Positions 2,717 to 57,213 of a stretch of 57,213 nucleotides of DNA are shown here, in pieces. Position 1 is the stretch's first letter. Every line of letters begins with the position of its first letter. This DNA comes from a virus (Duplodnaviria; Caudoviricetes). The stretch is taken from IMG/VR virus record IMGVR_UViG_3300036828_000780, positions 1 through 57,213 of that record; one strand, written 5' to 3'. The position numbers were made by a program, and so were the translations under genes. Under the pieces are notes generated by a model. That model was not told the origin of the DNA. It saw nothing but the letters and a program-made list of their open reading frames with translations, and made no database searches.

Positions 2717-3040
2717 TTACTGCTTGGTCGCGTCATCCGGCAGCAGATCGTCGAGGGCGCGTTTTTCGGCCCGGTCCTTAAACTCGGCAAACACCGCATC
2801 CTCGGTTTGGGCCGCATCGAACCCGTCCTCCCAGGCGGCGTCGTTGCCAGCCTCCAGTAGTCGGGCGACAACCGCCTGCAGGCACTCGATCCCAAAACCG
2901 CGCGGATAGGCCGCCTGCAAATGGTGGACGAGAGCCGCGGTCAGCAGATCGATCTGCTCATCCCAGTCGAGGCGATCCAGCGCCTTGCCGAGCTCGGCGG
3001 TGGCGAGATCCCGGCGGGCGCGTTTGCTCAAGCGCGGCAT
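2717..3040 (-). CDS. Hypothetical protein downstream of integrase
   Basis: ATG at 3040 with AGGAG RBS; MPRLSKRARRDLATAELGK... Confidence 0.6.
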   Translation of the reverse strand: MPRLSKRARRDLATAELGKALDRLDWDEQIDLLTAALVHHLQAAYPRGFGIECLQAVVARLLEAGNDAAWEDGFDAAQTEDAVFAEFKDRAEKRALDDLLPDDATKQ

Positions 3041-4200
3041 GAGGCAACTCCTTTCGCGATGGTGTTCTGCTGCTGTTCCGCGCGGGCGCCTTTGGCGGCC
3101 GCGGCGATCCCCTGGTGGGCGAGCATCTCGCGGTTGATCATCGCCAGGTAGCGGCGCAATTCCTTCGAGCTCTTGTGCCCGGTCACCGCCATCATCGCGT
3201 CCTCGCTGGCGCCGCCGCCGGCGGCCCGCCGGCACCACGCCTTGCGCAGCCCGTGCATCGTCGCTTCCGGCGGCAGGCCGGCGGCGTCGCACCAGGTGCC
3301 GAACGCCGCGCCGAGACCGCCGGGGTGAGAGTACCCTTTGCCGCGATTGCTGATGATGTAAGTCTTGAGCCCGCACACCGAGGCGGCAATGGTGTGCGCC
3401 AGCGCGGGCTCGACCGGGATATGCACGAGGGCCCCGGTCTTTTGTTGGCGCAGTGTCATGATGCCCGCTTTGACCATGCCCGGCCCCATGCGGAAGACGT
3501 CCGAGATGCGCTGCGCGGTGTATAGCGGCAAGGCCATTGCGAGCCGCGCCGTCGAGCCGATCGGGTGGTGCGCCTCGTATTGGGCGACCCAGGCTTCCGG
3601 CCAGGTCTGGTGCCCGTCCTCGCTGTCGTCGTCGGCCGCCTTGGCGGGCGGCTTGTAGCCTTTGAGGCCGGTGGTCGGATCCTCTTTGATCAGCTCGACG
3701 GCGACGGCGTATTGCATCAACCCGCGCAACGCGACGAGCGCGTTGCGCCGGGTCGACGGCAACAACAGATCGAGCCGGGCGATGATGTCGCCGCGCCGCA
3801 GGTCGCTCAGCAGGCGGTGGCCGTCCTGCGCCCGGAACCGTTCGAGGATGCCGCGGCGGGTGCGCTGGGTTCCGTCGGAGAGCGGTTCGAGAAAATATTG
3901 GTTGCTCTGGTAATAGGCGGCGATCGCCGCGCTGATCGTGCCGGCTTTCGAGCGCTTCGCCTCGCCGATCGCGACCGGCTCGACCTTGCGCATCTCGGCG
4001 AGGTAGGCGGTCAGGAACTCGACCGAGTCCGGTTCGCCGGGCAATGCCACCGCCGGGTGTCCGGGCCGGCGAAAGTACCGCCGCACCTTGCCGTGGCGGT
4101 CGGTGAAGCGGTTGACGTGCGGCAGTTCCTTGCCCGCTTGATGGCGGGGTTTATTGACCTTTTGGCTTTCGTTTCCAATAATCATCGGGTACGGGCTCAT
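3028..4200 (-). CDS. int: Tyrosine recombinase / phage integrase
   Basis: DRHGKVRRYFRR arm domain; YTAQRISD (R), QQKTG (K), HGLRKA, VTGH and RRY catalytic motifs; start approximate. Confidence 0.93.
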   Translation of the reverse strand: MSPYPMIIGNESQKVNKPRHQAGKELPHVNRFTDRHGKVRRYFRRPGHPAVALPGEPDSVEFLTAYLAEMRKVEPVAIGEAKRSKAGTISAAIAAYYQSNQYFLEPLSDGTQRTRRGILERFRAQDGHRLLSDLRRGDIIARLDLLLPSTRRNALVALRGLMQYAVAVELIKEDPTTGLKGYKPPAKAADDDSEDGHQTWPEAWVAQYEAHHPIGSTARLAMALPLYTAQRISDVFRMGPGMVKAGIMTLRQQKTGALVHIPVEPALAHTIAASVCGLKTYIISNRGKGYSHPGGLGAAFGTWCDAAGLPPEATMHGLRKAWCRRAAGGGASEDAMMAVTGHKSSKELRRYLAMINREMLAHQGIAAAAKGARAEQQQNTIAKGVASCRA

Positions 4201-4378
4201 CCCAGGAGTTCGTGACCGGAGCTGGCGTCGCGTCGTTTGCTGCGGGTGACGCCAGTTCCAACTTTATGCGACCATCCGATCCGATTTCCACTCGCGCAAC
4301 TTTGTTGCCGGTCTGCTCGACGGCGCGGATCGCGGCGGCGACGTCGCGTTGGCGGAAGGTTAGACGATCGCGCGCCAT
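4151..4378 (-). CDS. Excisionase-like small protein
   Basis: TFRQRDVAAAIRAVEQTG..VARVEIGSDGRI...NSWDE, the type of small gene found just upstream of such integrases. Confidence 0.65.
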   Translation of the reverse strand: MARDRLTFRQRDVAAAIRAVEQTGNKVARVEIGSDGRIKLELASPAANDATPAPVTNSWDEPVPDDYWKRKPKGQ

Positions 4379-4403
4379 CAATTGGGCGATCGGCTAGTTG
4401 ACG

Positions 4404-4631
4404 TCAAGTGGCGTCAATCGCGAAGTCGGGCAGGGCGGCCAGCCGCTGGCGCAGCTGGGAGTGCGCGACCCGCTTGCCATCGAGCAACGCATGGTGCGGG
4501 CCGGCGCGATAGATGCGATGCCCGGCGCGCCGCGCCGCGATGATCATCCGGTGTAATCCCGGGTCCTCGGGGTGCGCGAGGCGGCGTTGTGCCGGGATGA
4601 TCAGCGGGAGCTCAAAGTCGCGGCCTGTCAT
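4404..4631 (-). CDS. Hypothetical 75-aa protein directly after array B
   Basis: ATG at 4631, MTGRDFELPLIIP...; the longer in-frame ORF runs through the non-coding array. Confidence 0.5.
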   Translation of the reverse strand: MTGRDFELPLIIPAQRRLAHPEDPGLHRMIIAARRAGHRIYRAGPHHALLDGKRVAHSQLRQRLAALPDFAIDAT

Positions 4632-4633
4632 CG

Positions 4634-5290
4634 GGCTCTGCCTCGCCTGCTTTGCCATGCCCTGCCTTGCCATGCCCTGCCTCGCCGTGCCGAGCCGCGC
4701 CGCGCCCAGCCTGGCCCGGCCAAGCCCGGGAAATTCGCTAAAACCAAATCCTCGCCTCGCCTCGCCTTGCCGCGCCGCGCCCAGCCTCGCCCGGCCAAGC
4801 CAAGCCTGGCGGGGCCTTGCCACGAAATCCGCTAAACCCAAATCCTCGCCTCGCCTCGCCTCGCCCAGCCCTGCCCTGCCCGGCCGCGCCAAGCGCGGCC
4901 CTGCCATGCCTTGCCGGGAAATCCGCAAAAACAAATCCTCGCCTCGCCTCGCCGTGCCTAGCCCCGCCGTGCCGCGCCTGGCCCGGCCACGCCGAGCCTG
5001 GCCGGGCCTGGCCACGCAATCCGCAAAAAACAAATCCTCGCCTTGCCGTGCCACGCCGCGCCGAGCCTTGCCTAGCGACGCCTCGCCCGGGAAAATCCGC
5101 AAAAACCAAATCCTCGCCTCGCCTCGCCTTGCCGCACCCGGCCGCGCCCAGCCCGACCTCGCCCAGCCACGCCCCGCCCCGCCACCAAAACAAATCCTCG
5201 CCTCGCCTCGCCATGCCAGGCCTGGCCGCGCCATTACATGCCGGGCCCCGCCACGCGCGGCCTCGCCGCGCCTCGCCGGGAAACTCCTGT
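4634..5290 (-). ncRNA. GGY-NN pentamer array B (7 units separated by GGATTT...TTCC hairpin-like linkers); putative guide RNA array
   Basis: Minus strand reads e.g. GT-GGC-CA-GGC-CC-GGC-CA-GGC-TC-GGC-GT...GGC-GA-GGC-GA-GGATTTGTTTTTGCGGATTTCC; units at about 5198-5279, 5114-5185, 5038-5089, 4939-5015, 4846-4917, 4752-4823 and 4634-4728. Confidence 0.88.
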
Positions 5291-5947
5291 TCACGCCGCC
5301 GCCGCGGGTTGCTGCGCGCGCCACAGCTCGACCAGCCGGTCCATTGCGTCGCGAAAATTGGCGTTGTCGTGCGGCCACATGTCCTGTTCGAGGAGCAGCG
5401 CCAGTTGCCGCGCGTAAAAAGTCGCCGGATTGCCGCCATAGTGGCGCATCGCCTCGATCTGGTTGGCCGACAGCCGCTGGCCCTTGAGATGCGCGAGCCC
5501 GCGCTTTAGGGCGATTGCTTGCCCTGTCGGTGCGTGGCCAAATCCGCGGGTGATGTCGTCGATCTTCGGCGGCGGTATGCGCACCAATTCGCTGAGCGAG
5601 ATGCGTTCGTAGCCCAATGCGGTGAGCCGGGCGATGGCGCTGCGCAAATCATACCCGCTGAGCGGCTGGCCGTGGGCTACGTTGAGCCGCACGGCGTCGG
5701 CGAACAGCTCGGCCTCGCTGGCGTAGGTCCGGGTTTCGACCTCGATTGTGTCGATGCTGAGCGTCTCATAGGCGGCGTTGCGGTGCCAGCCGTCGACCAG
5801 GCGCCGGGTGTGCGCCTCGACGACAAGCGGCGGGAAACGCGCGCCTGCATTGTAGGCGTCGATTAGCCGGCCCACTGTAATTGGGTCGAGGTGCGCGCGC
5901 GCCCGCAATGTCTCGTCGCACTGGATGCGATTACGCTTCATCTTCAT
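5291..5947 (-). CDS. ParB/Srx-like N-terminal domain protein between the two arrays
   Basis: GGAGG RBS; FPPLVVE..TRRLVDGWHRNAAY and RLNVAHG motifs. Confidence 0.8.
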   Translation of the reverse strand: MKMKRNRIQCDETLRARAHLDPITVGRLIDAYNAGARFPPLVVEAHTRRLVDGWHRNAAYETLSIDTIEVETRTYASEAELFADAVRLNVAHGQPLSGYDLRSAIARLTALGYERISLSELVRIPPPKIDDITRGFGHAPTGQAIALKRGLAHLKGQRLSANQIEAMRHYGGNPATFYARQLALLLEQDMWPHDNANFRDAMDRLVELWRAQQPAAAA

Positions 5948-5957
5948 CGCCTGCCTC

Positions 5958-6334
5958 CAAATCCTCGCCTCGCCTCGCCTCGCCCAGCCTTGCCAGGCCG
6001 TGCCCCGCCGGGCCATGCCCGGCCAAGCCACGCCTGGAATTCCGCTAAACCCAAAGCCTCGCCTCGCCGTGCCTCGCCGGGCCCCGCCTCGGCCCGCCAG
6101 GCCATGCATCGCCACGCCTTGCCCGCGCCTGGCCCTGCCCCGGAAATTCAATAAACTCAAATCCTCGCCTCGCCTCGCCCAACCCAGCCATGCCACGCCT
6201 AACTCCGCCCCGCCGTGCCCTGCCCGGGATCAATAAACTCAAATCCCCGCCTCGCCTCGCCTGGCCTCGCCCCGCCGTGCCGAGCCACGCCCGGCCAGGC
6301 CTAGCCAAAACAAATCCCCGCCTCGCCTTGCGCG
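5958..6334 (-). ncRNA. GGY-NN pentamer array A (short leader plus 4 units); putative guide RNA array
   Basis: Starts right after the stop of the Cas7-like gene; units at about 6245-6306, 6165-6226, 6059-6141 and 5965-6036; same GGCGA-GGCGA-GGATTT 3' handle. Confidence 0.88.
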
Positions 6335-7111
6335 TCAGCTCTGCTCATCAGGCGGCGCGCCGTCCCAATCCAGAACGCCGGCGGGGTCGACCTCATCGAG
6401 CCGGGCGATCTCGCCGCCCGGCGTGTAGGCCTGCCACGGCCCGTCCCCGTAAGCGACGCCGATCAACGCGAACCTGCCGAACCATCCCTTGCTCTTGCCG
6501 GGGCGGTAATCGCCGACCCCTTTGCGCTGACCGGCGTCGGCCATGATGTCGGGCAGGATTGTCGGGTTGGGCACGAGCTGCTCGTCGAACAGCAGCGTCA
6601 TGTGGCCGATTGCCCAGACGTTGAACCGCGGCCGCGCCCGCAGGATGCGCTGGCGCTGCACGACCGCCGGGCGGCGGTCGATCTCGTAGCTGGACAATGG
6701 CGCGAGGTCGGCCGGATTGAGCAGCGCGAGGAATTCCTCCCTGACCTCGATATGCGCCAGCCATGGCGCAATCGAGCCGCGCGACCCTTTCGGCGCCTTG
6801 AAGATTGTCGCCGCCTCAAGCAAGGCCAGTCTGAAGGCCAGACCGAGGATCGCAAAGTGGCCTTCCGCGGTGCGATAGACGCCGGCCTCGGCCTCCACTT
6901 CGGGTTCGGGAATGTTCTTGCCGCCGCGGGCGGCGGCCGGGGTCAGCATTGCCTGCGCGTTGTGCGTCAAGAGCGGGCTGCGCCCCATCACCGAGAGCCG
7001 CAACCGGGCGCGCGCCTCGGCTTCCGGCGGCAAGACAAACGGGATCGTGCAGTCGAGATCTTCGGCGGGCGGCGCCAGTTGTGGGGCGTTGCGTCGTGAG
7101 GCGTTGCTCAT
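6335..7111 (-). CDS. Stand-alone Cas7/RAMP-like protein (Vipr-like), putative RNA-guided filament subunit
   Basis: LSVMGRSPLLTHN (RAMP beta1 + H), AFRLALLEAA helix, IDRRPAVVQRQRILRARPRF thumb, C-terminal G-rich loop AGQRKGVGDYRP...GWFGRF. Confidence 0.8.
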   Translation of the reverse strand: MSNASRRNAPQLAPPAEDLDCTIPFVLPPEAEARARLRLSVMGRSPLLTHNAQAMLTPAAARGGKNIPEPEVEAEAGVYRTAEGHFAILGLAFRLALLEAATIFKAPKGSRGSIAPWLAHIEVREEFLALLNPADLAPLSSYEIDRRPAVVQRQRILRARPRFNVWAIGHMTLLFDEQLVPNPTILPDIMADAGQRKGVGDYRPGKSKGWFGRFALIGVAYGDGPWQAYTPGGEIARLDEVDPAGVLDWDGAPPDEQS

Positions 7112-7175
7112 TTTGGCGATCCTTTCGTGAATTCAGCCGATCGACTGGTCGGGGAAGGCCTGTCATCGCCCGGCG

Positions 7176-7388
7176 TCAATAGTAATCGTCGTCGGGGTCC
7201 TTCCATTGGACCGCGGTCGGCGCGACGCCGCGCGCGGCGGCGATCGCCTGGAGCATACGTGTGAAGCCGATATCGGCTAAGACCGCCTGGATCTGGTGGC
7301 CGTCTCTGGTCATCAACGTGACGGTGCGGCCGTCGACTAGGTCGCGGAAGGCGGCCTCATCGATGACGAATTTGCGGGGCGACGGCAT
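7176..7388 (-). CDS. Hypothetical protein
   Basis: Small ORF coupled to the upstream gene. Confidence 0.5.
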   Translation of the reverse strand: MPSPRKFVIDEAAFRDLVDGRTVTLMTRDGHQIQAVLADIGFTRMLQAIAAARGVAPTAVQWKDPDDDYY

Positions 7389-7864
7389 TAATCCGGCCAC
7401 TTTACGACAGCGTGATTGGCGCGCTGCCAGCGCTCGGCCGCGGCCAGCAGCGCGTTGACTTCATCCTGCTTGGCGTAGGGCAGGCCGTGCAGCAATGCGA
7501 TTTCCAGCCAGACCCGCACGATCGCCGGCATGCTCCGATCCTGGGCGCGCAGCACGAAGATCGGCTCGTCATCGGAGCACCGACCGAGGCAGCTCGACCG
7601 ATCGTCGAGGCTGGCGAGCTCTTGTGCTTTGGTTGCCATGCAGGCCTCCGTTGTCATTGGGGTTGGTGGATGGTACGGCAGAAACTCGCACGCCTGGGGT
7701 GGGTCGGGGACCGGGTCGGGCGGCCCTGCTTCCGGCGCTTGCCGGCCGGGCGGGTCCGGCGCGCAGCGCGGCGCCGCCGGCAGGAATTCCAGCTCGTCGA
7801 GCCGGCGCTCGAGGAACAGGACCCGGCGCTCGAGGCGCTGCAGCCGGCTGTTGGCGTCGCTCAT
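7388..7864 (-). CDS. Phage hypothetical protein (DEPIFVLRAQD motif); may start at 7639
   Basis: SCL..DDEPIFVLRAQD motif common in phage early regions. Confidence 0.6.
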   Translation of the reverse strand: MSDANSRLQRLERRVLFLERRLDELEFLPAAPRCAPDPPGRQAPEAGPPDPVPDPPQACEFLPYHPPTPMTTEACMATKAQELASLDDRSSCLGRCSDDEPIFVLRAQDRSMPAIVRVWLEIALLHGLPYAKQDEVNALLAAAERWQRANHAVVKWPD

Positions 7865-7876
7865 CCGGCGAGCCTC

Positions 7877-7912
7877 CCGAAAGTTTGCGGTTAACGATTC
7901 CGAAAGTTTGCG
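7877..7912. promoter_or_regulatory. Left operator-like repeats
   Basis: CCGAAAGTTTGCG at 7877 and 7900; also at 8740, with variants at 8773 and 8850. Confidence 0.7.
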
Positions 7913-8221
7913 ACGGCTGTCAACCCGGTTTTTGCCGGCCGGACGGCAAGGCATGCCGGAATTGCCGGCTCACCCTTGCCGGTTCACACTTTTTTCACGG
8001 TTTCTTGGCGAATTATTAACTATTGGGGCCCTTGCGGCCCGTGAATTGTTGTGTGAAGGTTTCGTGATTCGCGCCGGACGGCCGCAAAACTAAGAAAACA
8101 GGAAACGCTATCCAAATAACGGGGGAGGTCATCTCGAAATGACCAAGCTTTCGCCGCGGGTGAAACGAGAGATATGCCGATTGCGGCAAGAAGAAACGGC
8201 AGAGCGTGATTGCTGCGGTGT

Positions 8222-8692
8222 TCAGCCTTTATTATCGGCATCCTCGCCGGCCGCCTCTGGCGGCTCATCCTCGCCCGCCCAAATCTCACCAATTGTGCGG
8301 CGGATCGTCGAGAGGACGTGCTCGTCGATCGGCGTCCCGTCGCTTTGGGCGGCCTGCAGGACGTTATACACCCGCGCTGTTGCTCGAATAACGCGGCGGG
8401 AATTGCCCGGGTCGCCGGGCGGCAAGTGAGCGCGCAGCGCCTCTTGCGCGGTGTTGTGTGCGATTTCGAGGAGGTCGGGCGAGACGCGGCCGAGCGCCGA
8501 GAAGCCCATGAGTTCGGGGAGCGTCCAGCGCAGCGCCAGCGCGATCTTTCGCAACGTGGTGAGGCGTCGGCTGGACGGCCGATCCATTGTGTCGTGCCCC
8601 AGGCCGACCCGGTCCAATAGCTTGCGCAACGGTTCTCCCAGCTCGGCGGCGCGTTGCTGGCACCGCCGCTGGAATTCTTCCTCCGACCACAT
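8222..8692 (-). CDS. Putative CI-like repressor (XRE HTH)
   Basis: LRKLLDRVGLGHDT...RLTTLRKIALALRWTLPELMG; divergent from Cro-like gene and flanked by operators. Confidence 0.7.
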   Translation of the reverse strand: MWSEEEFQRRCQQRAAELGEPLRKLLDRVGLGHDTMDRPSSRRLTTLRKIALALRWTLPELMGFSALGRVSPDLLEIAHNTAQEALRAHLPPGDPGNSRRVIRATARVYNVLQAAQSDGTPIDEHVLSTIRRTIGEIWAGEDEPPEAAGEDADNKG

Positions 8693-17396: not shown

Positions 17397-17615
17397 TCAG
17401 TCCCAGGCCTGGAGGTCGCCGAACGGGTCGCGAAGGTAAATCCGCAGGCGCAGGCCGCCGCGGCTGCTCCGCGCTTCCGTGGCGAGGCAGGCGGCTTCTT
17501 TCCGGTCCTCGCACGGCGTCGCGAACACCAGGCGCTGGCCGTCGGGGCTCAACACGGTGAGGTGCCAGGTCGGGCGCTGGCCGCGGGGGTAATGGCGGCC
17601 GCACGGGGCGCTCAC
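17397..17615 (-). CDS. Hypothetical protein
   Basis: GTGA-coupled to the resolvase stop. Confidence 0.5.
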   Translation of the reverse strand: MSAPCGRHYPRGQRPTWHLTVLSPDGQRLVFATPCEDRKEAACLATEARSSRGGLRLRIYLRDPFGDLQAWD

Positions 17616-18283
17616 GGCGCGCTGTCCCGGTCGAGGATGCGCTTTACCTGCTGGCGGTGCAGGGTGCGCCCGTGGGCCTCGGCAACGGTTTCGGCGATCT
17701 TCCGGTAGCCGAGGCCGGCGGCGCGCAGCTGCCGCATCGTCGCGAGCATCGCTTGCTCGGCCGGGTCCTCGGCTAGGTCGCCGTCCGCGGTTATGGTGAA
17801 ACCGAACGGCGCCCGGGTCCCGCCGCGGAACCGGCCGCGCTTGGCCTGGTCGCGCTTGACGTCGCAGATCCGCTCGCGGATGCGGTGGCGCTCGGCCTCG
17901 GCGACCGCCGAGAGGATCGTAAAGACCAGCTTGCTGACGCCGTTGCCGGTGACGTCGCCGCCCAGGTCGATCATGTGCAGGCTGACCCCGCGGTCCTGCA
18001 GGGTCTGAAGGACGTCGAGGGCGTTTAGCGCGCTTCTAAACATCCGGTCGAGTTTCGGGGTGATCACCGTGTCGCCGGGCTGCAGCCGGGCCAGCAGCCG
18101 CCGGCCTTCCGGCCGGTCGGCGAGCGGCGTCGAGCCGCTGACGCCGCGCTCGACGTGGATTTCGGCCAGGTCCCAACCGTGCTGCAGGGCGTAGCCTTGG
18201 ATTTGCCGCTCTTGCGTCCCGAGGCTTTCGCCCTCATCAGCTTGGCGATCCGTGCTTACTCTTATGTAACCATAGGTAGCCAT
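17612..18283 (-). CDS. Serine recombinase (resolvase/invertase family)
   Basis: YGYIRVSTDRQ, ERGVSG, PKLDRMFRS, AVAEAER; C-terminal HTH. Confidence 0.93.
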   Translation of the reverse strand: MATYGYIRVSTDRQADEGESLGTQERQIQGYALQHGWDLAEIHVERGVSGSTPLADRPEGRRLLARLQPGDTVITPKLDRMFRSALNALDVLQTLQDRGVSLHMIDLGGDVTGNGVSKLVFTILSAVAEAERHRIRERICDVKRDQAKRGRFRGGTRAPFGFTITADGDLAEDPAEQAMLATMRQLRAAGLGYRKIAETVAEAHGRTLHRQQVKRILDRDSAP

Positions 18284-18288
18284 CGCGC

Positions 18289-18513
18289 CTAGGCCGTCCG
18301 CCGGCTTGGCCGCTGGCGCAGCAGCACCAGGCAGGCCTGCAACCGCAGCCAATCCTCGGGGGTGTTGTGCCAGGTGTGCAGCGAGAGCGCGACCGCCTGG
18401 TTGCGGGTGATCTGGCGGCTTTGGCCGCGCGAGACGAAGCGGCCGGCTTCGTCGGGGGTCATGTCGCGGATGTGAGTGATGTCCTCTACGTCGCGCAGCT
18501 TCATCGGGGTCAT
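18289..18513 (-). CDS. Hypothetical protein
   Basis: Small ORF upstream of resolvase with AAGGA RBS. Confidence 0.5.
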   Translation of the reverse strand: MTPMKLRDVEDITHIRDMTPDEAGRFVSRGQSRQITRNQAVALSLHTWHNTPEDWLRLQACLVLLRQRPSRRTA

Positions 18514-18643
18514 CGGAAGGTCCTTTGTCCACAGTGCTAAAGCGGTGTGACCACACATGGGGCGCGCCTGTCACATCGCAAGCGGTGTGGACGTGGGAAT
18601 CTGTCGGAAACGTCTGAATTCTCGGTAAACTGGAGGGAGATCA

Positions 18644-19258
18644 ATGGGTCGGCAAACGACATGGACGCCGGCGAGCGTCAGGCGGGCGGTGGAGCTCGGC
18701 TTGGAGGGGTTGGGCCCGGCCGCGGTCGCGCGGCGCCTCGGTGTCCCGCCCGGCCGGGTCAGCGCGCTGTTCTCGCGGTTGCGCGCCGAGGACGAACCGG
18801 CGCCCGCCCCGGCTCGCGCGCCGCGGGGGCGCAAGCCCAGCCCGTGGGATGCGCCGCCGGAGCGCCGTGAGCGGGTGCTCGACCTGGTCGCGCAGGGCGT
18901 CACCTTTGCGGTGATCGCCGAGCAGCTCGGCACGACCAAGAGCGCGATTGCCGGCCTGGTAGGGCGAGCGCGCGCCCAAGGCGAGGCCCGCGCGCATATC
19001 AAGGACGTGCGGGCCGAGTTGGCGGCCGCCGAGCGCGGCGAGGCGGTGCCGGGCTTGGTGGAGCGGTTGCGCTGGGATGTCGTGATGGCCGGCGGCTGCC
19101 GCTGGATTTACGGGCACCCGCGGCCCGATCCCGGCGAGGTGGCCGATTGGCATTGGTGCGGCGCGCCGCGGGTCACCGGCTTGTCCTATTGCCCGGCGCA
19201 TGCGCTTGCCGCCTACCAGCGGACCCCGCGGGAGACGCCGCCGGAGACCGGGGTATGA
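18644..19258 (+). CDS. GcrA-like cell-cycle regulator (two HTH-like segments)
   Basis: IAEQLGTTKSAIAGLVGR; CRWIYGHP...WCGAP....SYCPAH. Confidence 0.8.
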   Translation: MGRQTTWTPASVRRAVELGLEGLGPAAVARRLGVPPGRVSALFSRLRAEDEPAPAPARAPRGRKPSPWDAPPERRERVLDLVAQGVTFAVIAEQLGTTKSAIAGLVGRARAQGEARAHIKDVRAELAAAERGEAVPGLVERLRWDVVMAGGCRWIYGHPRPDPGEVADWHWCGAPRVTGLSYCPAHALAAYQRTPRETPPETGV

Positions 19259-57085: not shown

Positions 57086-57213
57086 GCCCCCCAAGGACCC
57101 GCCGACGGGTCGCCTGATCCCCGACCTGGTCGGGCGCGTCCTCGGCTACATGGATCGCCCGTGGAAGGCCGTCGCGATCATCGTGGCGGTGGTCCTCGGC
57201 GCAGCCGGCTGGG
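57086..57213. repeat. Terminal direct repeat (copy 2)
   Basis: Matches 1-128. Confidence 0.95.

Follow-up and report, generated by a model that had tools for sequence, protein, structure and literature searches.

The 57,213-base viral record IMGVR_UViG_3300036828_000780 of IMG/VR (Duplodnaviria; Caudoviricetes), the whole of which was analysed and is called the window below, carries a locus of the Viral Interference Programmable Repeat (VIPR) kind together with a small serine recombinase (resolvase) gene, and one of the guides of that locus, A1, is aimed at the family to which this resolvase belongs. This combination raises the question of how the phage spares its own resolvase, and whether two AGA arginine codons in the catalytic motifs of the gene were selected to dodge the guides, as was proposed in a first-pass annotation of the sequence. 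In our view, the own resolvase is probably told from the targets mainly by differences in its residues, and the AGA codons belong to local patches of codons ending in A or T, the first of which would serve the initiation of translation; the synonymous differences are most likely a by-product and not a selected recoding.

VIPR is known from three bioRxiv preprints (10.64898/2026.04.26.720920, 10.64898/2026.04.26.720927 and 10.64898/2026.10.15.759431), and what is said of it here follows sections of their main texts. The small RAMP protein of the system, Vipr, is related to Cas5-7 and has an RRM core, a G-loop and a thumb; the vrRNA genes lie in the intergenic DNA that flanks vipr and have tandem GGY-NN repeats with variable NN. 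Vipr acts with vrRNAs in which 9-16 YNNGG repeats precede an invariant 3' tail. Double-stranded DNA is read through the NN pairs, on either strand and without a protospacer-adjacent motif (PAM); one base is skipped, mostly the wobble base of a codon, and the binding of Vipr leads to the silencing of transcription (10.64898/2026.04.26.720920). In the same main text, natural targets were called at an NN match of at least 80%, no self-target reached this threshold, and some of the guides matched other VIPR loci. Structures are given in the second preprint (10.64898/2026.04.26.720927). According to the third, a phage VIPR silences the excision recombinase of a satellite at its active site (SUSP1 vrRNA4), and escape is said to need a non-synonymous change (10.64898/2026.10.15.759431).

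Guide A1 and the resolvase of the window

The features that this comparison needs are as follows.

17612..18283, minus strand: small serine recombinase (resolvase) gene, 223 aa, ATG at 18283, start MATYGYIRVSTDRQ, PF00239
18242..18268, minus strand: motif 1, YIRVSTDRQ, codons 6-14, TAC ATA AGA GTA AGC ACG GAT CGC CAA
18032..18058, minus strand: motif 2, PKLDRMFRS, codons 76-84, with R80 = CGG, R83 = AGA (18037-18035) and S84 = AGC
6245..6315, minus strand: vrRNA unit A1, NN = TA CT CG GT TC AC GG GA CA (Y L R V S T G D/E Q)
4844..4936, minus strand: vrRNA unit B5, NN = AA AT AG CG TT GC CG AG AG TG

A Pfam profile search placed the resolvase in PF00239 (E 3.2e-33, 115.3 bits against a cut-off of 23.3, residues 4-151 covered). 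Like the other small serine recombinases of this family, it has an N-terminal catalytic domain with the Y-x-R-V-S and D-R-x-x-R motifs, but its clade, which is found in alphaproteobacterial prophages and phages, is set apart by an invariant KLDRMFRS. The homologues, 51-67% identical, occur in alphaproteobacterial genomes and viral contigs, and R8, S10, R80 and R83 are invariant across an 11-sequence alignment. Both motifs fall in the first third of the gene.

The A1 pattern (NNx, nine variable units) had 12 exact matches in viral contigs, each of them in frame with a serine recombinase gene and placed on the YLRVSTG[D/E]Q at its start; judged by these sequence matches, A1 is a true anti-serine-recombinase guide. 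The in-frame matches, as well as the preprints, bear out the wobble-skipping code that was decoded in the first-pass annotation and its view that A1 is aimed at Y-x-R-V-S-T, and the sequence of the unit agrees with its statement that A1 specifies CG and TC where the gene has AGA and AGC. The annotation had further regarded the resolvase as independent internal support for the code, which is not needed, as the code is already published as VIPR. The homologue set comprised 163 rows, from which 27 were dropped as being at least 95% codon-identical, leaving 136 that were non-redundant. A1 matched 16 of its 18 read bases in seven of these and 15 in a further 39 (46/136 at 15/18 or above), compared with 11/18 on the own resolvase, and 27 of the 136 do not exceed 11. 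Pseudo-guides taken out of array A produced 11 matches of at least 17/20 on the homologue genes, compared with 0.4 for shuffled guides.

The seven mismatched bases of the own site fall into two kinds. Four come from the residues I7 (where the guide reads L), D12 (G) and R13 (D/E), and three are synonymous: at R8 the gene has AG where the guide reads CG, and at S10 it has AG in place of TC. If R8 and S10 were written in the usual codon families, the own site would match at 14/18 (78%), which is under the published calling threshold of 80%. The main-text sections of the preprints yielded no figure for the mismatch tolerance of VIPR, and we infer that binding would be escaped at 11/18 and perhaps at 14/18 as well. 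Full synonymous avoidance of A1, i.e., at all three bases, was found in the window and in 13 others of the 136 homologues, and in 5 of the 86 homologues whose peptide permits at least 14/18. No self-target at an NN match of at least 80% was present in the window for any guide; the best self scores, from 18/32 to 13/18 (56-72% of the read bases), are on a par with what shuffled guides attain. The phage also encodes a tyrosine integrase (3028-4200), all 34 Arg codons of which are CGN, with no AGR, and the three guides ascribed to integrase box II match at most 58% of their read bases in it.

Guide B5 and motif 2

The pairing of B5 with motif 2, which was put forward in the first-pass annotation, had to be given up. 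B5 matches 9 of its 20 read bases at codons 77-86, and a CGN codon at R83 would raise this to 10; at codon 148 of the resolvase it does better by chance, also in frame (11/20). Its best sites in the window reach 14/20, compared with a mean maximum of 14.4 for shuffled guides, and on typical homologues of the clade it scores 8/20 by hand count. As no guide of the window matches motif 2 above chance, the second AGA is without a known guide. A pattern for an array guide against D-R-M-F had one match in the viral contigs, with flanks that do not fit the motif.

In 3.6 Mb of loci, the ten guides other than A1 had no match above those of shuffled guides, bar a single one for B5: 18/20, antisense, at positions 5521-5550 of the locus L191. 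It lies in a 123-aa open reading frame (5195-5566) directly after vipr, with the skipped base on the wobble position of that frame. Its significance is doubtful, being about 0.05 before correction for the 11 guides, and homologous sites lend it no support.

The AGA codons and their A/T-ending surroundings

The following features bear on the codons themselves.

18194..18280, minus strand: A/T-ending codon patch, codons 2-30, GC content at third codon positions (GC3) 0.52 compared with 0.92 in the rest of the gene
18023..18041, no strand: inverted repeat GTTTAG-N7-CTAAAC, from the codons TTT AGA ... CTA AAC

Among the 27 arginine codons of the resolvase, 13 are CGC, 12 are CGG and two are AGA, the latter occurring only at R8 and R83, both of which are catalytic; the earlier manual count, in which both AGA were the sole exceptions among about 25 CGN codons, was therefore correct. 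In motif 1, R8 is AGA (18262-18260), the catalytic S10 is AGC (18256-18254), and the rare codons ATA (I7) and GTA (V9) flank R8; motif 2 ends in TTT AGA AGC (codons 82-84, 18040-18032). AGC had also been read as a recoding, but it makes up seven of the nine Ser codons of the gene and is its default, so AGC at S10 and S84 is no departure. In the codon background of the phage, which was taken from 49 crudely called genes with the resolvase itself left out, AGA accounts for 10 of 1060 Arg codons (AGG:AGA = 45:10), ATA for 11 of 468 Ile codons and GTA for 29 of 778 Val codons, and, judged by these frequencies, ATA-AGA-GTA strings together three rare codons that end in A. At both R8 and R83 the gene uses AGA, although AGG is 4.5 times as common, and ATA and GTA deviate from the common codons only at the third base, which VIPR skips. 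The setting of AGA amid ATA and GTA speaks for a local patch of A/T-ending codons. The window is free of tRNA genes, so the phage provides no tRNA for AGA.

The 5' GC3 skew of the resolvase is the strongest of 65 GC-rich homologues, and predicted mRNA folding is weakest at the gene start (-9 to -15 kcal/mol per 60 nt, compared with about -20 to -40 elsewhere), with a second trough over motif 2. In 53 other high-GC3 frames of the phage, which were chosen with a filter that left out the resolvase itself, only 2 of 13204 14-codon windows were equally A/T-ending, both at gene junctions, and no run of three such rare codons was present. Bacterial genes tend to have A/T-rich, weakly folded 5' coding ends, which the resolvase resembles in its low GC3 and in having its weakest predicted folding at the start. 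It differs from them in that the effect is far stronger than in the rest of the phage or in the 64 GC-rich homologues, and in having a second patch 230 nt inside the gene. As the reason for the first patch, we infer that A/T-ending codons over codons 2-30 would keep the translation start unstructured; the AGA at R83 would belong to another, small patch, likewise A/T-rich, at which no guide is directed.

No donor of these patches was found among 135 homologues, the nucleotide identity being at most 75% over codons 1-30 and at most 82% over codons 71-90. The inverted repeat GTTTAG-N7-CTAAAC is perfect and single in the window, and none of 100 shuffles had one; by arithmetic, however, a 6-bp inverted repeat of some sequence should turn up roughly once in every gene, which makes the significance of this one uncertain. 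The string GTTTAGCG occurs also in two vrRNA tails, at 4832-4837 and 6045-6050 on the minus strand. No sigma-70-like promoter was found in 17500-18700, and the motif-1 DNA had only a chance-level match, with three mismatches, elsewhere in the window.

Codon states among the homologues

In the GC-rich homologues (65 non-redundant, GC3 at least 0.75), AGR accounts for 6.3% and AGA for 1.8% of the aligned Arg codons. By position, AGR was found at R8 in 9 of 64 (five of them AGA), at R80 in 3 of 63 and at R83 in 5 of 62 (two of them AGA). There was no enrichment of AGR at R80 and R83 of these homologues (8 observed, 7.9 expected, p = 0.55), six other conserved Arg columns were depleted of it (11 observed, 22.1 expected), and the 71 homologues with a GC3 below 0.75 showed no enrichment. 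AGA at R80 or R83 is common in lower-GC homologues, e.g., L052, L059 and L061. Over the whole set, AGR stands at R8 in 17 of 135 homologues, which corresponds to 17 separate changes on the protein tree, and AGY stands at the catalytic S10 in 39 of 134 (22/63 in the GC-rich set and 17/71 in the rest). The first-pass annotation had itself named the same AGA/AGC bias in unexposed lineages as counter-evidence to its reading, and this is largely what these counts amount to, together with the lack of an array signal in 10 of the 14 AGR-bearing genomes or records that were scanned.

On the tree of the 136-homologue alignment, S10 passes between TCN and AGY about 23 times, although each such switch takes two base changes and passes through a codon for another residue. 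The count may be too high owing to tree error and recombination; other Ser columns switch 5-19 times.

Genomes with and without arrays

GGY-NN arrays, which were sought up to 10 kb to each side of the homologues, are present in only 4 of the 161 sources, i.e., the window, L008, L009 and, as a short segment, L047. The homologue of L009 has AGA at R8 and AGC at S10, and that of L008 has CGG at R8, AGC at S10 and AGG at R80; on the peptides of both, A1 could attain at most 12/18. Among 80 further VIPR loci like that of L008, a serine recombinase was found in one (L226), where R8 is CGC and S10 is AGC, and none has an RVST guide. The RVST-guide pattern was found at 11 loci, 9 of them in arrays, with no serine recombinase in the flanking DNA that was examined, and no PF00239 gene was present in the two complete phages that bear an RVST guide. 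Two of the array guides, in L173 (about 3160-3240) and L177 (about 3960-4040), read Y-x-R-V-S-T-x-[D/E]-Q; the guide of L177, Y V R V S T A D/E Q, fits the resolvase clade of the window, and the complete L173 record is without a serine recombinase.

A further scan covered 14 genomes or records whose homologues bear AGR at R8, R80 or R83. It used one 8-unit GGY pattern with one mismatch allowed, by which degenerate arrays may be missed and which gave 138 matches in the positive control, L008. Ten of the 14 had no GGY-NN array signal; in the remaining four, the pattern matched once in one genome or record, which is at control level, at one short place in each of two others, and at an array-like place in the L054 genome. 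In the latter (G017), the array-like GGC-NN run lies at 54746-54851 of contig 8 of a bacterial genome. The sole AGR of the L054 homologue is AGG at R80, with TTG at L78, and both states are also seen in L008.

The comparison of array-carrying and array-lacking genomes, which the first-pass annotation had recommended, has little power, as it is based on four array-bearing contigs with a serine recombinase (window, L008, L009 and L226): AGC in all four and AGA in two of them agree with its reading, and the occurrence of the same states in array-free genomes does not. We regard the pattern of the array-bearing contigs as suggestive, there being three beyond the window, and the guide only in the window.

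Weighing the explanations

By analogy with the systems of the 2026 preprints, as described in their main texts, a filament of the RAMP protein Vipr would hold the GGY of every vrRNA pentamer, the NN would read codon positions 1 and 2 of the target DNA with the wobble base skipped, and the bound gene would be silenced. A1 would in this manner silence the resolvase homologues of rival elements through their catalytic Y-x-R-V-S-T-x-[D/E]-Q motif, and the own resolvase would be spared at 11/18 read bases by four mismatches from its residues and three from AGA and AGC. That these three were selected, for self-avoidance or for escape as the first-pass annotation had concluded, is not supported by our results; the codon switches are not confined to guide footprints, and the same states recur among relatives without an array signal. 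The evidence for codons selected to dodge a guide is weak and consists of a post hoc coincidence and of a modest, confounded enrichment at R8.

Several observations nevertheless weigh against the preferred reading of residue differences and A/T-ending patches. The two AGA are the only AGR in the gene and stand on catalytic arginines, a coincidence of about 1/100 to 1/5000 depending on the null and judged post hoc; from the phage-wide frequency of 10/1060, 0.25 AGA would be expected in the resolvase and the probability of two or more is about 0.03, to which the placement of both on two of the three catalytic arginines adds a factor of 3/351 (post hoc arithmetic likewise). AGC at the catalytic Ser is shared by all four array-bearing contigs (window, L008, L009 and L226), two of which have AGA at R8. 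With standard codons, the own site (14/18) would top the A1 sites of the genome, chance giving at most 13. A gene-stratified test showed an excess of AGR at R8 in the GC-rich homologues (9 observed, 3.9 expected, p = 0.012), which remains without the window (8 compared with 3.9, p = 0.034). On the tree, no Arg column switches codon family more often than R8 (17) and no Ser column more often than S10 (23), which also fits guide escape; the margins are modest (R83 12, R57 11, and S117 19 in 86 sequences compared with 23 in 134 for S10). Finally, the phage-wide 5' effect is small (GC3 0.78 in codons 2-15 compared with 0.846 overall), and since the patch is far stronger than this general effect, an ordinary start effect is no full account of it.

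Some of these points favour a selected self-immunity limited to motif 1, in which CGN to AGA at R8 and TCN to AGC at S10 were fixed because they lower the match of A1 from 14/18 to 11/18, with R83 unrelated. The first rank that the standard-codon site would take, the gap between 11/18 on the own gene and 15/18 or more on 46 of the 136 homologues, and the rarity of the full three-base avoidance (5/86) are all as expected from it, and in a system described in the preprint main texts as lacking a PAM, any difference between self and non-self has to lie in the read bases. We nonetheless hold it to be unlikely, as 14/18 is already under the threshold for natural targets, AGC is the default Ser codon of the gene, identical codon states are found in array-free genomes, and VIPR explains neither the choice of AGA over AGG nor the neighbouring ATA and GTA. 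Since a serine recombinase is absent from the two complete phages that bear an RVST guide, the window stands as a single case of a guide and an own homologue together. Escape from the guides of competing phages, in which the conserved catalytic motifs of this clade would be targeted in the community and the AGR and AGY switches at R8, S10 and R83 would be escape mutations, appears less probable still. RVST-type guides do occur in other arrays (9 of the 11 pattern matches, and L173 and L177 in particular), and both the R8 enrichment in GC-rich homologues and the many independent switches at R8 and S10 would be expected from such a contest. The lone D-R-M-F match in the viral contigs misfits the flanks of the motif; enrichment is lacking at R80 and R83 and in the homologues with a GC3 below 0.75, the 5' position of R8 confounds its signal, and S10 is not clearly above S117.

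Phage genes are mosaic, and the A/T-rich patches could be short stretches that came from a lower-GC homologue by descent or recombination and have so far escaped amelioration. The frequency of AGA at R80 and R83 in such homologues (L052, L059 and L061) agrees with this ancestry, the lack of a donor among the 135 homologues speaks against it, and we give it only a small chance.

The VIPR locus of the window

The components of the locus are listed below.

6335..7111, minus strand: vipr gene, RAMP/Cas7-like protein of 258 aa, assigned by structure model and homology
5958..6334, minus strand: VIPR array A, GGC-NN pentamer units with A/T-rich tails
5291..5947, minus strand: candidate vap accessory gene between the arrays, assigned by position only
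4634..5290, minus strand: VIPR array B, 7 units

Neither the Vipr protein nor the candidate vap gene had a Pfam or PADLOC match (E of at most 0.01 for vap). The AlphaFold model of Vipr (pLDDT 82.1, pTM 0.76) had Csm3/Cas7 backbone subunits as its top PDB matches (E 3.3e-6 to 1e-4, probability 1.00, TM 0.36-0.56), and no VIPR structure was among the PDB matches listed for the model. Vipr is 29% identical (E 2e-14) to a protein adjoining long GGY-NN arrays in the viral contig L008. The arrays comprise 11 units of 9-16 variable pentamers each, with 9-15 pentamers per full unit beginning with GGC, and every vrRNA unit closes with (GGCGA)3, which is constant, followed by a tail of the form ATTTG...GCGGATTT; the units share the strand of vipr. 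In A1, the variable part is followed by the constant GGCGA GGCGA GGCGG and then the ATTTG tail. On the features that were tested, the window holds a VIPR locus, made up of a RAMP gene, GGC-NN arrays and a candidate accessory gene.

The window resembles the VIPR of the preprint main texts in its phage-borne small RAMP gene, flanked by GGY-NN arrays and an accessory gene, in NN pairs that read codon positions 1 and 2 with a one-base skip, and, as in SUSP1 vrRNA4, in a guide (A1) aimed at the active-site motif of a recombinase. It differs from the published systems in its alphaproteobacterial, GC-rich host range, in units that close with three constant GGCGA pentamers and an A/T-rich tail, and in that the phage bears a homologue of the gene family that its own guide targets. 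A search with the Vipr of the window gave no relatives in the viral contigs, where the exact (GGCGA)3-tail string likewise had 0 matches, and no Rfam family matched within 4300-7300.

Two other views of the arrays were considered. Protein-binding repeats with meaningless NN spacers (TRAP-like) were dropped after all 12 of the A1 matches proved to be in frame; coding sequence was rejected, as all frames are open since the pentamers seldom create stops. In L008 (4535-7463), three long, near-unbroken GGY-NN arrays of about 420, 585 and 850 nt, without A/T-rich tails between units, flank the Vipr homologue (5964-6608), and the resolvase homologue (7802-8443) lies 0.3 kb beyond the last array; this arrangement may be the 'staggered array' architecture named in the main text of 10.64898/2026.04.26.720920. 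The window has a direct terminal repeat of 128 bp, 99% identical (1-128 and 57086-57213), and the record is the whole virus genome of 57213 bases.

Implications

The window is a natural case of a phage guide aimed at the catalytic motif of a gene family that the phage also carries, so that 18 read bases, with no PAM to help, have to suffice for separating self from non-self. The first descriptions of VIPR date from 2026, and they reason in the main texts that wobble skipping leaves no silent escape; synonymous change is treated in 10.64898/2026.04.26.720920 only for wobble positions, and it does not come up in the main text of 10.64898/2026.04.26.720927. The main texts of the three preprints (the supplements were not covered) make no mention of switching between the Arg, Ser or Leu codon families, that of 10.64898/2026.04.26.720920 does not mention recombinase or integrase targets, and the main texts of this preprint and of 10.64898/2026.04.26.720927 do not mention escape. 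The codon-family loophole is thus an idea that is not in these main texts, and the system itself belongs to the published kind. We think it rather improbable that the six-fold degenerate residues are the one synonymous loophole of VIPR and that the phage uses AGA and AGC to shield its resolvase from its own guide and those of its rivals. As it stands, the case documents an example well and poses a hypothesis that can be tested, but it is no evidence for the loophole. If the loophole were real and in use, it would contradict the published need for non-synonymous escape, as worded in the preprint main text, and the 17 independent switches at R8 and the 23 at S10 would be traces of an arms race at the level of codon families. 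If switches between the Arg and Ser codon families do matter, they would offer a silent route of escape from VIPR as well as a design rule for immune or orthogonal targets.

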